A stretch of DNA of 60,817 nucleotides, filler included. It is 8 parts of 8 records of this genome, joined end to end, with 100 filler letters (N's around TTAATTAATTAA, not from the genome) between each part and the next. Parts side by side here need not be neighbours in the genome. Positions count along the whole stretch, not along the records: positions 43,403 to 49,733 come from SRR31147125_22507; 7 more parts are not named here. One strand, written 5' to 3'. Below are positions 43,403-49,733 of the stretch, in pieces. The translations under genes and the position numbers were made by a program. Below the pieces are notes generated by a model. That model had not been told where the DNA came from, did no database searches, and worked only from the letters and a program-made list of their open reading frames with translations. Each line of letters starts with the position of its first letter. Position 1 is the first letter of the stretch.

Positions 43403-44632
43403 TTCCTCAAACGCCCCACCCTTTTTCCTGAAAAGCTTTACGTTGCCATCAATTGTAGCTGTATCAACGGCACGAAGAGTTTCAAAGCTCGGCTTTACAT
43501 CGCATTTGCAATCTGCTTTAACCGTATTAAATTTCCATTCGCTTTTACTATCTCCTGCAACCGCCACCGTATCGGCAGGTGTGGGCTGAATAGGATTCTT
43601 GTCTTGAATAGCGGCAACTGAATTAAAGAAGTTACCCATCGGGTTTTCTGTAATAGAGAAATGGAAAGCTGTTACGACTTCGTTTCTTTGTCTTTTGTCG
43701 CCTACGATTTTTTCCCAGATTTTGAGTCCGTAGTTAGTGATTTGTCTCGCACCTTCGGCCTCTTGTACTGCCGGTACATCCGTTGCGTATGCAGGATACT
43801 CATCATTGGCTTTTTCGAGAGACACCTTCAAAACATTGTTTCTAACAGTTCCATCAGGAGCGATGTAGGTGGAACCGGTTTCCTCGTAATAATCTTCTTC
43901 TGCAAAAACGAGGAAGAAGTTATCCGGCTGTACCGGTTTCTTATTGATGTCTTTAAGTCCGTTTTCCGTCAAGCCGGTAATCACTATAAGATAGGTATGA
44001 CCAGGCTCGAAATCGGCTGGAATTGTTCCGCCGAGAGTTTTTCTTACAGTAAGAAAGTACGGATGAGCGTCTGCTCCGGCGTAGTTGAAAGACATTACAT
44101 ATTCGCTTGAAGTTATAACTTCAGGATTATCCTTGTCTGTCACATCAAAAAAGAAGAAGTTCGCTTTGTCTTCGTTTGCAGCACTGTCGTCATACTGCAC
44201 GAGGCTTTCCATATCAATCTTTTGCGAGAACGGAATGTTCACGATAAATCCCGGAACAAAGCCGCTTAGCAAATTCATGCCTGAAACCAGATATTTGGTT
44301 AGGGCGGAATCTTCCACTGCCGGATAACCGAGGTCTTTTCGTATTGCCAAAGCCTTGCCTTCAGTTATCGGAAGATTCATTCCTGTAGGTCTTTCAGATG
44401 CTTTTTCCACTCCGGGAATACTCAGATAATCATACTGCTGGCCCGGATTAAGCAGGTTTGTCGGTAGCGGCATCACACCCCAATCAGGGTTGACTATCGC
44501 AATCGGTTCGGTTTCGTAACCGACATTTGACGGATCATCCTGACCTACATCGGGACAACCGGAAATAAGAGCAGCAAGCGATAAAATCGCCAAAAAGCTC
44601 ATTGAAAGACGAACAAAACGTGGAAAAATCAT
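43403..44632 (-). CDS. Large lipoprotein with Ig-like N-terminal region resembling VolA/Pla-1 lipase N-termini (3'-truncated)
   Basis: Lipobox 'ISGC'; 'PLPTNLL...MNLP...MNLLSGF...IPFSQKIDMESL', 'FEPGHTYLIVIT...LKD'. Confidence 0.55.
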
Positions 44633-44818
44633 GATTCCTCCCTTTTTTTCAAGAATCCACTATATAATTTTACTAAAAACCTTACTGATTTGGATTATTC
44701 AGCAATCATTGCCGCATATTCTACTCCAGCGTAATTGGATTATCAACATTTTCACCATTTAAAACCGATAAGACTTGCATAACCATAAGTCTATGATATC
44801 CTTGCGTCTTATTTTTTG

Positions 44819-45261
44819 ATGATGTTTGATGATGGAAAAAGTGTATTGAAAATTAGCGTTAGACCGATCGACAAAGAACCTTGGCAAAAAACAGCCGCCC
44901 TGATAATATTGATAATGCTTTCAAGCATTTTCTCGGCTTATTTCATGGGAAGTAGCTACTGGGGATTATTCGCTCTTGCGGTTCTCGTAATCGCCACCAA
45001 AAACTACTTCATCAGGATCGAATTCGAGCTTTTGGACGATAAAATCATCATCGACCGTGGACTACTCAAAAAAGAGCGAAAATGGAGCGAGTTTTATCGG
45101 GTTGTCAGCGATAAACAGGGAGTATTTTTATCCTGTTTTAAAAAGCATCGAAACTTGACGCCTTTCGAGGCGAATATATACTTTGCTACGAGAAAAAATC
45201 GGAGGTTGCCGAGTTTGCCAGAGCGAGGATCGAACAAAGAGAAACCAAAGTCAATCCGTGA
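44819..45261 (+). CDS. Operon gene A: 2-TM protein with soluble beta-rich C-terminal domain; indel at the A run 45140-45144
   Basis: Correcting one base gives '...GVFLSCFKKASKLDAFRGEYILCYEKKSEVAEFARARIEQRETKVNP*' (TGA 45259-45261). The ORF track's 260-aa protein is a chimera of A and B. Confidence 0.6.
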
Positions 45262-45598
45262 ATGGTTGACTTTCGCTTTCAAAGTTCCGGAAAAAGGTGA
45301 ATTATCCGAGGAAGATATAGCACTTTTGGATAAAATGGCTGATTTTCTTGAGAAAAAGTCATTGATGGAAGCGGCGATTCTTGGTATGGAAACCATACGA
45401 CCACTTAATTTTGTCGGAGCGCAAGCCTTGGCTTTCTTGCGACCATTCGTGCATATGGTATATAAGAAAAAAGAGGAATATGACAAATTTACCGAGTTGC
45501 TTGAAAACAGGCATACTCTGGGACAATTTGTAGAAATCCTTGAAGCTAGAATAGCTCGTTTGTCCGATAATGAAAAGGAAGAGGATAAAAGTGTATAA
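45215..45598 (+). CDS. Operon gene B: small helical hypothetical protein
   Basis: GGAGG RBS then TTG at 45215; 'LLDKMA...AAILGMETIRPLNFVGAQALAFLRPFV...LLENR'. Confidence 0.65.
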   Translation: MPERGSNKEKPKSIREWLTFAFKVPEKGELSEEDIALLDKMADFLEKKSLMEAAILGMETIRPLNFVGAQALAFLRPFVHMVYKKKEEYDKFTELLENRHTLGQFVEILEARIARLSDNEKEEDKSV

Positions 45599-47126
45599 GC
45601 GACTGATTTTATTGATTGTTTCTATTGTTTTCATGTTTTCTGCTACTGCTTCGGCACAGTTGCCGAAAGTGGTTGATTTTACAGGAGACGATGTCAAAAA
45701 CGATGCCGGACAAAGTGTCGTTCTGACCTGGCCGAAACAGAATGGAGAAAACCCGAACTGGCGATATATTATCGAGGCTTCGGCAAATTCCGATGGCCCC
45801 TGGACTCGTGTTGCCCGCTTCGGTTCGATGTTGCAGTGGAAAGAAGATTATCCGGAGATTTTCGGTCATCCAGATGAAAATGATCTGCAAAAGACTCATG
45901 CTCTGAAAGTTAGCCTAGCTCCTCCATCATCAGAAATGATAGGGGAACTAAAGAGCAAAGCTGAAGCTTCTTTATTGGCAGCTAAGGAAAAAATTTCAAA
46001 TATTGAAGAAAAAATCAGTAAAGTCAAAGCTGAATTCGCATCGTACTCCAGACAAAGAGAGCAATTGCAGGAAAGATTATCCAAAGCTCCAAAAGGTGAT
46101 GATGATGTTTCACGAGACAAACGCGTTTCAATTGCTGCAACACTTGAGGATTTAAAAAGGGAAAACAGACATCTCGATCGCCTTTACGATCAGAAATCTT
46201 CGGTATCTAAAAAAATCCAGCAATACACAACATGGTCACCACCTGTTACAACCACGCTAAAGCCTGGAAATCAGTACTATTTCCGCATTTCAGCAGAACA
46301 ATCGGGTGAGGTTGGCCCTATTGCTACAACAACAGCAACACCCTGGGGTAACTGGATAAACACCAATCGTTTGCATAATCTTCTGATTGCTCTTTTGCTT
46401 GCTTCGCTGATTATCATTTATACATTGAAAGCTCGCAAAAATCCGGAAAACATTTTTGTTCGTCGTATTGCAGGTCTTGAAGCCGTCGATGATGCCATCG
46501 GACGCGCAACCGAGATGGGAAAGCCGATTTTCTTTGTTCATGGTCTTGCAAATCTGGCCTCGATTTCAACAGTGGCTGCAATTAACATTCTAGGTAAAAT
46601 CGCCGAAAAAGTCGCGGAATACGGAACGGAATTCAAGGTCACTAACCGTGACCCGGTTGTTTTGGCTGTCAGTCAGGAAACTGTAAAAGAAGCGTATCTT
46701 AGAACCGGAAGACCGGATCTATATAATGAAGACCACGTATTTTACGTCAGTCAGGATCAGTTCTCCTATGCAACCGGTGTTGAAGGAATGTTTTTGCGTG
46801 AGCAACCGGCATCCTGCTTCTACTTCGGATACTACTACGCCGAGGCGTTGCTACTTACAGAAACCGGATCTCATATCGGAGCGATTCAGATTGCAGGAAC
46901 AGACAGCTACACACAGCTACCGTTTTTCATCACAACTTGCGATTACACTTTGATGGGTGAAGAGCTTTACGCAGCGAGTGCATATATGTCACGTGAACCT
47001 AAACTTCTGGCAAGTCTTAAAGCACAGGATATTACAAAAGGTATTCTGCTAATATTCGCTTTGCTCGGAGTTGTGCTTTCTACAAGCGGAATCATGTGGC
47101 TGGTTAACTGGACGGAATCATTCTGA
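45591..47126 (+). CDS. Operon gene C: signal peptide, FN3-like extracellular region with coiled-coil insert, TM, DUF6754-like domain, TM
   Basis: 'VRRIAGLEAVDDAIGRATEMGKP', 'QLPFFITTCDYTLMGEELYAASAY', 'SLKAQD'. The DUF6754 label is from memory. GTG start after GAGGA (alternative ATG 45570). Confidence 0.75.
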   Translation: MYKRLILLIVSIVFMFSATASAQLPKVVDFTGDDVKNDAGQSVVLTWPKQNGENPNWRYIIEASANSDGPWTRVARFGSMLQWKEDYPEIFGHPDENDLQKTHALKVSLAPPSSEMIGELKSKAEASLLAAKEKISNIEEKISKVKAEFASYSRQREQLQERLSKAPKGDDDVSRDKRVSIAATLEDLKRENRHLDRLYDQKSSVSKKIQQYTTWSPPVTTTLKPGNQYYFRISAEQSGEVGPIATTTATPWGNWINTNRLHNLLIALLLASLIIIYTLKARKNPENIFVRRIAGLEAVDDAIGRATEMGKPIFFVHGLANLASISTVAAINILGKIAEKVAEYGTEFKVTNRDPVVLAVSQETVKEAYLRTGRPDLYNEDHVFYVSQDQFSYATGVEGMFLREQPASCFYFGYYYAEALLLTETGSHIGAIQIAGTDSYTQLPFFITTCDYTLMGEELYAASAYMSREPKLLASLKAQDITKGILLIFALLGVVLSTSGIMWLVNWTESF

Positions 47127-47187
47127 TTTTTACACAGATTAAGAAATTAAAACATACAGGATTTGAGTTAGTAACGAGGTTTTTTGG

Positions 47188-47838
47188 ATGATATTTTTAA
47201 AGAGACAGCTACCTTTAATAATTGCATTTATCTTTGGTATTCTTGGCATTGTCATCGGATATGTGCCTCACCAGAGCTTTGAAGATCTTTATACCGAGCT
47301 TGTCAACTGGGATAGATTGCTTGCAGCTTTTGCTCTTTTACTCGGTATGTATTCGCTGCTTAGAATGCACTGGAAACGCATCGAGAGAAGACAGGAAGGC
47401 TTTGGCTTTTCCATCATTTTGTGGTTCGGCTTTCTGCTTACTTTCGGAGTCGGAATCTACAACGAAGGTGACTGGATGTTCGCCAACAGAACAAGCCACG
47501 GAATGACAAGCTGGATATACGATTATGTTTTCAAACCGGCTGGCGCGACAATGTTTTCCGTTCTTGCCTTTTTTATCGCATCTGCCGCCTACAGAACATT
47601 CCGTGCCAGAACCGTTTCGGCGGGATTGCTTCTTTGTGCTGCTCTGGTCGTCATGATCGGTCAGGTTCCAATTGGAGATTTGATTTCACACAGAATTCCG
47701 GAACTTTCGATCTGGTTGATGGAAATACCTAACGCAGCCGTAAAACGCGGTATCTTCCTTGGTGTCGCTTTGGGTGTTGTCGCTACCTCGCTTCGTATCA
47801 TCTTCGGTGTCGAACGAGCATACCTGGGAGGTGAATAA
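47188..47838 (+). CDS. Operon gene D: membrane protein with about 6 TMs, unknown function
   Basis: 'ATMFSVLAFFIASAAYRTFRAR', 'PNAAVKRGIFLGVALG...LRIIFGVER'. Confidence 0.8.
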   Translation: MIFLKRQLPLIIAFIFGILGIVIGYVPHQSFEDLYTELVNWDRLLAAFALLLGMYSLLRMHWKRIERRQEGFGFSIILWFGFLLTFGVGIYNEGDWMFANRTSHGMTSWIYDYVFKPAGATMFSVLAFFIASAAYRTFRARTVSAGLLLCAALVVMIGQVPIGDLISHRIPELSIWLMEIPNAAVKRGIFLGVALGVVATSLRIIFGVERAYLGGE

Positions 47839-48680
47839 TGAAGCGTGAAACATTACAAAAACTACTTGATCTTGACCGCAGATGGATCTTTTTGTTCGTG
47901 CTTATTGCTGCAATCGTAGCAAGACTTGCAGAGTTCAATTTGCCAAGCATTCCCAAAAAGCGAGTCACGGAAATGTATAACGAAGTGGAAAAGCTTGCCA
48001 AAGAAGACAAGATTCTGCTTATTTCGATGGATTACGATCCATCCGGAAAACCTGAGCTTGAGCCTATGTCAAGAGCAGTTTTAAGACATGCTTTCATGCG
48101 CGATATAAAAGTCGTCGGCATGACTCATAACCCTCACGGACAAAACCTTGCACAGTCCGTCATGGAACAGACAGCCGCAGAATACGGCAAGGAATACGGT
48201 AAAGATTACGTATACTTAGGCTACAAAACAGGCTTCGCAACCCTCATCATTAATATGGGACAGGACTTTTACGGAGCTTTTCCCTTCGACTTCAAGGGAG
48301 TAGACACAAAATCATATCAAGTCACCGCAGGCATAAACTCACTTGCCGATTTCGGTTACGTCGTCTCGATTGCATCAAACGCCGCATGGGAAATGTGGAT
48401 GATTTTCGGACGTGAAAAATATCGCTTTACTCTTGGAACGGGCACAACAGGAGTTATCGCTCCCGATGTTTTCCCGTTTTTACAAACAGGTCAGATTACT
48501 GGACTTTTAGGAGGCTTGGCCGGTGCCGCCGAATATGAAACTCTGATAAACAAACCGGATCGAGCTGAAATAGGAATGAGACCGCAATCCGCTGTCCATA
48601 TGCTTTTGGTTCTGCTTGTTATTTTTGGTAATGTCATTTTCTACTGGGAGCGCAGGCTTGCCAGAAAGCGCAGAGCATAA
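47838..48680 (+). CDS. Operon gene E: alpha/beta domain anchored by N- and C-terminal TMs
   Basis: 'LISMDYDP...ELEPM', 'YGKDYVYLGY', 'GLLGGLAGAAEYE'; TAATG overlap with gene D. Confidence 0.8.
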   Translation: MKRETLQKLLDLDRRWIFLFVLIAAIVARLAEFNLPSIPKKRVTEMYNEVEKLAKEDKILLISMDYDPSGKPELEPMSRAVLRHAFMRDIKVVGMTHNPHGQNLAQSVMEQTAAEYGKEYGKDYVYLGYKTGFATLIINMGQDFYGAFPFDFKGVDTKSYQVTAGINSLADFGYVVSIASNAAWEMWMIFGREKYRFTLGTGTTGVIAPDVFPFLQTGQITGLLGGLAGAAEYETLINKPDRAEIGMRPQSAVHMLLVLLVIFGNVIFYWERRLARKRRA

Positions 48681-48690
48681 GGAGGTCATG

Positions 48691-49583
48691 ATGGATAAAG
48701 AACAACTAAGAGATAGAATCCTCTTTATTATTCTGGCAGCAGTTATCGTTGTCTCGAATATTTACCTGTTCGCAAGTGGACAGCTCCCTGGGACTGGACC
48801 GGCATAGGGATTATGATTGCAGCGACAATCACCATTTCGATGTACAGCTTTTTGTATAAAGACAACGTTCTTTTCAAAATAGTCGAACATCTTTATATCG
48901 GTGTTGCAGCAGGTTACGTTACTGCCATTTACTGGTTCAACATCTTCTGGCCAGAGCTTGTAAAGCCTCTCGCCGTTCCCGATCCGGGCGAAGAAAGAAA
49001 CTGGCTCAGACTCATTCCAATGCTGCTTGGTGTCGCTCTTTTGATGCGCCTAAGTAATCGTTTTGGCTGGGTTTCTCGTGTTCCGTTTGCCTTTATCATG
49101 GGATTTTTCTCAGGTATCGCTATTCCGAACTACATCCAGACTTTCATGATCGAGCAGCTTCATTATACGGTTCAACCGCTGTTTACATCCGCCGACAGTA
49201 CTCATTTGATACTCGAAGCTCTCTTTTTGGTTACCGTGCTAATATATCTGGTTCTCGATTGGCTATGGCTATCCGTGCTAAATAAACCATGGGTAAATAT
49301 TTTGTGTATGATTCCGGCTCTGGTCTTTTTGGCTATCGGAATCTTTGCACCGATTCCGGGCATCAGTCAGATTGTTGTACTTTTGGGTACGCTAAGTGTC
49401 CTGATTTACTTCTTTTTCTCGGTCGAGCAAAAAGGAGCAGTGGCAACAGCAAGCAAGCTTGGTATCTACTTCCTGATGGTCAGCTTCGGAGCTTCATTCG
49501 GTTATACGATTATGGCCAGAATGTCGCTTTTGGTTGGTCGGTTGGAATTCCTGCTTCGCGACTGGCTTGGCATCAGCCTGTAA
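48691..49583 (+). CDS. Operon gene F: polytopic membrane protein; indel at 48786-48788
   Basis: AAGGAGGT RBS and MDKEQLRDR... start. Adding one C gives '...QLPWDWTGIGIMIAATITISMYSFLYKDN', in frame with ORF 48813-49583. Confidence 0.75.
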
Positions 49584-49600
49584 AATTGAATATTTAGAGC

Positions 49601-49733
49601 ATGTATTACAACACCACACTTGCCATTCTATGCGGGGGAAAAGCCAAAAGAATGAATGGTGTGGAAAAAGGACTGATTGAGATCGACGGGCAAACGATAA
49701 TCGAAAAACAGATAAAAACTCTTTCTCCTTTTT
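49601..49733 (+). CDS. mobA: Molybdenum cofactor guanylyltransferase MobA-like NTP transferase (3'-truncated)
   Basis: 'AILCGGKAKRMNGVEKGLIEIDGQTIIE'. Confidence 0.75.

Follow-up and report, generated by a model that had tools for sequence, protein, structure and literature searches.

Subunits C and E of a conserved four-protein membrane module are alike in plan and are predicted to hold their alpha/beta domains on opposite faces of the membrane

Genes of the locus

We analyzed a window of 60,817 nucleotides, the whole stretch of DNA under study, and within it the locus encoding the membrane proteins C, D, E and F. The locus lies on the contig at positions 43403-49733 (G+C content about 0.42), which carries one divergent minus-strand lipoprotein gene and five plus-strand genes, B, C, D, E and F (Table 1). 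The stop codon of D overlaps the start codon of E. C-D-E-F is a conserved, widespread and unstudied four-protein inner-membrane module present in several phyla, anammox bacteria included, and three of its four proteins have no family. The subunits C and E are built alike, and the alpha/beta domain of each is predicted to lie on the opposite face of the membrane from that of the other.

Table 1. Features of the contig at 43403-49733 (positions along the window; ORF, open reading frame; TM, transmembrane; aa, amino acids)
Feature	Position	Strand	Basis and remarks
Lipoprotein gene	43403-44632	minus	lipobox 'LISGC'; truncated by contig end; divergently transcribed
B, small, TM hairpin (residues 28-66) and cytoplasmic helical tail	44816-45598	+	ORF, hydropathy; 3' end overlaps C start
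C, 518 aa	45570-47126	+	ORF: signal peptide, exported Fn3-like domain, TM, alpha/beta domain, TM
C signal peptide, residues 1-30	45570-45659	+	basic N-terminus, hydrophobic core, 'ASA/Q'
C exported part, 237 aa, Fn3-like with coiled-coil insert	45660-46370	+	weak fn3 match, coiled-coil-type matches, family consensus
C first TM, residues 268-286, out to in	46371-46427	+	hydropathy 2.24
C alpha/beta domain, about 204 aa, predicted cytoplasmic	46428-47039	+	Pfam DUF6754 core, model secondary structure, charge bias
C conserved motif TLMGEELYAASAY, residues 460-472	46947-46985	+	18 residues before last TM
C last TM, residues 491-509, in to out	47040-47096	+	hydropathy
D, six TM, N and C termini inside	47188-47838	+	hydropathy; two short basic loops, HWKRIERRQ and YRTFRAR
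E, 280 aa	47838-48680	+	ORF: TM, about 215-aa alpha/beta domain, TM
E basic N-terminus 'MKR...DRR', residues 1-16, predicted cytoplasmic	47838-47885	+	D13-R14-R15 invariant in family
E TM1, residues 17-35, in to out	47886-47942	+	hydropathy, model
E alpha/beta (Rossmann-like) domain, predicted periplasmic	47943-48587	+	
E conserved motif GLLGGLAGAAEYE, residues 222-234	48501-48539	+	16 residues before TM2
E TM2, residues 251-269, and basic tail ERRLARKRRA	48588-48677	+	H254 and N265 invariant
F, polytopic, about 8-9 TM	48688-49583	+	two frames in window; ORF listed only as 48813-49583

Architecture of subunits C and E

Residues 260-513 of C match the Pfam family DUF6754 (PF20539) with 376.8 bits (E 5.3e-113, profile positions 3-255 of 257), well above the gathering score of 27 bits, and the DUF6754 domain has at least 7983 relatives. 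This family is catalogued but uncharacterised, and its entry covers C only; D, E and F stand outside any family. A hydrophobic signal-like N-terminus is present in 155 of the 180 C-family members. Translation of C may begin at ATG 45570 or at GTG 45591, which lies behind a Shine-Dalgarno-like 'aggaagagga' and overlaps the end of B by 8 nucleotides; the two starts are equally plausible, and the signal peptide is retained with either. The exported part contains a lineage-specific coiled-coil insert of about 110 aa (residues ~112-230, window 45900-46260), which is common to the closest relatives of C (for example P0124, 506 aa) and absent from most family members (median 412 aa). The sequence 'KARKNPENIFVRR' stands directly after the first TM helix, with five lysines or arginines in the first 15 residues past the membrane, while the tail past the last TM helix consists of 9 aa and has no basic residue. 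In the motif TLMGEELYAASAY, 10 of the 13 columns are invariant (30-sequence alignment A2).

No Pfam family, DUF6754 included, was found for E at E up to 1, and no NCBIfam family. An indexed search returned 402 relatives at E <= 0.001, all of them unnamed or 'hypothetical', and an exhaustive search with the E profile returned 4687 clusters at 50% identity and the same threshold. In the ESM Atlas the E homologue P0042 matched no usable named cluster, all of its matches being unnamed clusters from within the E family. Eight positions of the E motif (G222, G226, L227, G229, A230, A231, E232 and E234) are invariant in 36 sequences. Both motifs are thus nearly invariant, each within its own family. 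Among the 150 best E representatives, 31 have 330 aa or more. All of these are E with insertions, placed at hot spots after residues ~114 and ~237 and 40 to 550 aa long (representatives P0244-P0388), and none has a part of C, D or F fused to it. The Pfam scan of these long proteins covered 22 of the 31, and 19 of the 22 matched no Pfam family. One homologue (P0306) has a CARDB domain inserted within the E domain (E 1.1e-6), another (P0309) has a tandem second E domain with only a sub-threshold DUF2249 match, and a third (P0318) is extended past TM2 by a short basic loop and one more hydrophobic helix.

A first-pass annotation, made by a model from the letters of the window, had described the same layout for both proteins, a TM helix, a beta/alpha domain and a second TM helix, and every sequence feature it named is present.

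Membrane orientation of the two domains

The TM helices were set through the family alignments, and lysines plus arginines were counted in the 15 residues on each side of them. In the C family the domain-side counts are 4.33 (after the first TM helix) and 2.39 (before the last), whereas the outer flanks have 2.44 and 0.33, and the flanks on the domain side are richer in basic residues in 179 of 180 related sequences (mean difference 3.96). The bias is the reverse in the E family, with 3.57 and 3.25 at the termini and 1.76 and 2.30 on the domain side; here the termini are richer in 166 of 182 related sequences, level with the domain side in 14 and below it in 2 (mean difference 2.76). By the positive-inside rule, a cytoplasmic location is well supported for the C domain and a periplasmic one is likely for the E domain. 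The signal peptide and the Fn3-like domain that precede the first TM helix of C agree with its predicted orientation. CARDB domains, such as the one inserted in the E domain of P0306, are typical of extracellular proteins, and the extra helix of P0318 after its short basic loop is as expected with the C-terminus of E inside. The first-pass annotation had placed the C domain in the cytoplasm and the E domain outside, and computation agrees with it on both. The two domains were not predicted on the same side, and we regard their location on opposite faces of the membrane as probable from these sequence features.

Sequence and fold comparison of C and E

It had also been proposed, by eye, that C and E are homologous. 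A BLASTP comparison gave no significant match, the best (E 0.75) being a 17-residue TM alignment. The profile comparison that had been suggested as a check, of the HHpred type, was made with hhalign and gave a probability of 0.57% for the C and E profiles, 0.0-0.6% with about 180 sequences per family, whether whole or soluble parts and local or global alignment were used, and 0.3-0.4% against C when the E profile was deepened by 112 representatives at 50% identity (effective number of sequences, Neff, 4.5). With loose settings the best hhalign path is colinear over 227 columns and pairs TLMGEELYAASAY with GLLGGLAGAAEYE, as had been done by eye; its identity is 12% and its P 0.14, and it is therefore no evidence of homology. 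The two motifs have 4 identities in 13 positions and a BLOSUM62 score of 5. A 13-mer with at least this score turned up in every one of 2000 shuffled E sequences, so the likeness of the motifs has no evidential value, and the best match of the C motif within E is found elsewhere, at residue 138. The proposed homology was thus not borne out, nor was the antiparallel pseudo-symmetric pair that had been built on it.

AlphaFold2 models made with the family alignments show alternating strands and helices in both domains. The E model has a mean predicted local distance difference test score (pLDDT) of 87.7 and a predicted template modelling score (pTM) of 0.80. The C-domain model is poor (pLDDT 65.1, pTM 0.54), and the fold class of C is therefore uncertain. 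With Foldseek, neither model had a match in the PDB at E <= 0.001. Profiles searched against PDB sequences had chance-level matches only (best for E a neurexin at E 0.0012, best for C at E 0.17), and no solved structure related by sequence to the module proteins was found in them. Structural neighbours were sought by VIA-align against 48,161 chains, and the top-50 lists were compared. The best neighbours of the E model are KTN/RCK (about ten of the top 50) and SDR folds, and those of the weak C model are universal stress protein (USP) and DegV folds. Four entries (5kgl_A, 3nvl_A, 3t4e_A and 7bdv_A) are in both lists, and the C and E models cover the same regions of them. Both domains appear to be Rossmann-like sandwiches, and the models do not show their folds to differ; there are four shared templates and different top families, at a pLDDT of 65 for the C model. 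The shared plan of C and E is either convergent or too old to detect.

Genomic context of the module

Eighty loci were fetched with the E profile, and the window proteins were searched in them by tblastn. D and E are present in all 80 loci, C and F in 79 each, and C-D-E-F are always on one strand and in the same order. The loci are labelled Latescibacterota, Planctomycetota/Brocadiales, Gemmatimonadota and Myxococcales. Clustering of all ORFs of these loci revealed upstream partners. Just upstream of C, 48 loci encode a protein of about 600 aa of the family PF13941 ('MutL', the GlmL-like actin-fold ATPase family; E 1e-124), and 55 encode a cytoplasmic protein of about 375 aa whose N-terminal domain is a barrel-sandwich. 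The latter protein also gave only a chance-level match (best E 0.028) in the profile search of PDB sequences. Relatives of B are found in 46 loci, mostly just upstream of the GlmL-like ATPase gene. L001 is the closest locus, with 61% identity to E, and in its genome the genes for the ATPase and the partner protein are on another short contig.

The co-occurrence of DUF6754 and PF13941 was counted in 151 genomes from the phylum of the L001 genome, with PF13941 taken over its cut-off. Both are found in 18 genomes, DUF6754 alone in 1 (G055), PF13941 alone in 1 (G069) and neither in 131; in 11 of the 18 genomes with both, the matches lie on one contig, no more than about 12 kb apart. The sampled genomes are kin, and so these counts show linkage and not independent events. 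A literature search by the family names DUF6754, PF20539 and PF13941 found no paper.

Genes for transport are frequent around the module. Opp-type ABC ATPase genes occur in 27 of the 80 loci, and in the loci from Latescibacterota and Gemmatimonadota the module is flanked by a family-5 binding-protein gene (SBP_bac_5) and by two genes for permeases. Downstream there is often a large outer-membrane protein, either TonB-receptor-like or a PD40/Omp85-like protein of 1190 aa. In several loci of these two phyla (L006, L028, L022, L058 and others) the module, B, the GlmL-like ATPase and the protein of about 375 aa were seen within an Opp/Dpp-type ABC importer operon.

A proposed ATP-coupled relay and its alternatives

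We propose that C and E are two different subunits of the C-D-E-F module, built alike and inserted in opposite orientation, and that the module may work as an ATP-coupled relay serving uptake; we give this reading a probability of about 55%. Each of the two subunits would be a helical hairpin anchor whose two TM helices enclose a Rossmann-like domain of about 200 aa. C would hold this domain in the cytoplasm and expose its Fn3-like domain outside, E would hold its domain in the periplasm, and the membrane core would consist of the polytopic D and F. The cytoplasmic domain of C may dock the GlmL-like actin-fold ATPase and the barrel-sandwich partner. Movements could then be transmitted through the TM helices to the periplasmic domain of E and the Fn3 domain of C, which would be the outer working end. 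The whole module would be a relay across the membrane, most likely for the uptake of peptides or similar substrates. A prediction of the complex (C domain, D and F, with E) scored 0.49, against 0.38 with F replaced, and was not used for or against binding.

Several observations weigh against this proposal. The orientation of both domains is derived from the positive-inside rule, the counts come from related sequences and so are not independent, and the margin of charge bias is small in the anammox homologues of E. A hydrophobic stretch of C (residues 320-338) can be read as an extra TM helix and is flagged in 6 of 30 relatives, and the C-domain model is of the low quality given above. HEAT repeats are inserted in the E domain of one homologue (P0333), an insertion that is uninformative about the membrane side. 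In Brocadia and Kuenenia loci C-D-E-F stand alone, without partners. The contig in the window ends 150 bases past F and has no ATPase gene, so the links with the ATPase and the Opp genes come from other genomes. The ATPase-relay mechanism is drawn from gene context only and is a tentative and rather doubtful part of the proposal.

The two subunits could instead be ancient paralogues with inverted topology, forming an antiparallel pseudo-symmetric pair whose equivalent domains cap both membrane faces. The common plan, with a small-residue/acidic helix 16-18 residues before the last TM helix, and the opposite predicted orientation are in keeping with such an origin, and so are the fit of both models to the same regions of the four shared templates and the colinear loose path with its paired motifs. 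The first helices and strands of the models also have near-equal lengths and spacing (H41-56, E60-65, H68-87, E92-96 and H99-115 in E; H43-57, E61-64, H73-92, E96-100 and H103-119 in C; H, helix; E, strand). However, no significant sequence signal was found (BLASTP E 0.75; hhalign 0.2-0.6% with 180-294 sequences and Neff up to 4.5), the loose path and the motif likeness have the weaknesses described above, the best structural neighbours differ, and no alpha/beta arrangement is commoner than the Rossmann-like sandwich. D and F, which might have been duplicated together with them, are unrelated (hhalign 0.1%). Mirror-image paralogy is unproven, and we consider it unlikely; the fuller version, in which very old mirror-image paralogues form a dual-topology pair and, with D and F, the core of a new envelope machine driven by an actin-fold (GlmL-like) ATPase, is slightly less likely again. 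The location of E bears on a different alternative, with both domains in the cytoplasm because the first hydrophobic segment of E does not span as assumed or because E is inserted N-out. In fold, the E domain comes closest to regulators and enzymes of the cytoplasm, including the KTN/RCK entries, the charge bias of E is modest in some lineages, and the HEAT repeats of P0333 would be in keeping with such a location. Against it stand the termini-in bias, reversed in only 2 E sequences, the D-R-R invariant directly before TM1, the CARDB insert of P0306 and the loop and helix of P0318. In addition, E has no glycine-rich dinucleotide loop past its first strand, as read from the sequence 'ISMDYDPSGKPE'. 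We find a common cytoplasmic location improbable.

A redox- or ion-driven complex of the Rnf/Nqr type, in which the barrel-sandwich protein would take the role of NqrA or RnfC, was also considered. Rnf and Nqr hold a homologous subunit pair with inverted topology, and in the family of about 375 aa, 22 of 26 members have weak matches to RnfC_N (best E 1.3e-6) and 8 of 26 to NQRA_N. However, Biotin_lipoyl matches are equally good (22 of 26, best E 5.6e-7), and since RnfC_N and Biotin_lipoyl score alike these matches probably mark a common small domain and not the family; in the first family member all matches are below the curated cut-offs. No Rnf/Nqr membrane family matched 33 members of the D family and 33 of the F family at E up to 1, and the proteins of the locus gave no match to a flavin or iron-sulfur family. 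This alternative appears very improbable.

Other genes and the assembly

Neither D nor F could be assigned to a Pfam or NCBIfam family, and scanning 33 relatives of each singly gave none either. Weak matches to DUF373 in the D family (10 of 33, best E 0.072) and to DUF3704 in the F family (11 of 33, best E 0.012) were discarded as noise. F starts at ATG 48688, behind 'ggagg' and immediately after the stop of E. Its first ~41 residues are read in a different frame, which joins that of the remainder at a run of C near 48785. The orthologue in L001 (3303-4196) is uninterrupted. One extra C is present behind 48785 in an independent contig, which comes from run X1 (depth 4.9, possibly the same sample); the frame break is therefore most likely an assembly error, with one C missing near 48785.

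The lipoprotein gene at the other end of the contig has no Pfam or NCBIfam match and is not conserved beside the module in the other loci examined. Scans found 18 sigma-70 promoter-like sites against 10.7 +/- 3.4 in shuffles and 10 terminator-like sites against 5.8 +/- 2.5, and nothing stands out among them.

The window (1-60817) consists of eight contigs joined by seven N spacers, each spacer made of two runs of 44 N, and the G+C content of the contigs ranges from 0.29 to 0.51. It resembles a mixed or loosely binned assembly, and neighbours across the spacers are thus uninformative about each other.

Comparison with known systems

NqrD/NqrE, RnfA/RnfE and paired SMR proteins such as EbrAB are homologous subunit pairs with inverted topology. 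C and E resemble them in being neighbours that are predicted, from their sequences, to insert in opposite orientations. Unlike these pairs, which are plainly homologous and purely membrane-embedded, C and E have no detectable homology, and both include a soluble domain of about 200 aa. The module also differs from the Rnf and Nqr complexes in its D and F families, whose scanned members (33 and 33) match no Rnf/Nqr polytopic subunit family.

By fold, the E domain is likened to the Rossmann domains of KTN/RCK and SDR proteins. KTN/RCK dinucleotide-binding domains have a glycine-rich loop after the first strand, and this loop is absent from E. The C domain may be likened to universal stress protein domains, with the reserve that its model is weak.

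The MacB/FtsX-type (type VII ABC) systems work by mechanotransmission, with a periplasmic alpha/beta domain between two TM helices and a cytoplasmic ATPase as the drive. They may serve as a working analogy for E, whose predicted periplasmic domain also lies between two TM helices. No FtsX or MacB_PCD Pfam match was found in C, D, E or F, and unlike MacB/FtsX the module has an actin-fold GlmL-like protein and not an ABC ATPase as its candidate motor, and a Rossmann-like fold in the E domain. Such a motor would set the proposed machine apart from those with ABC, AAA+ or P-type motors. If the two domains do lie on opposite faces and the module is driven by an actin-fold ATPase, it would represent a previously undescribed kind of membrane machine, and if C and E were also diverged duplicates, they would be the first inverted-topology pair bearing large soluble domains.

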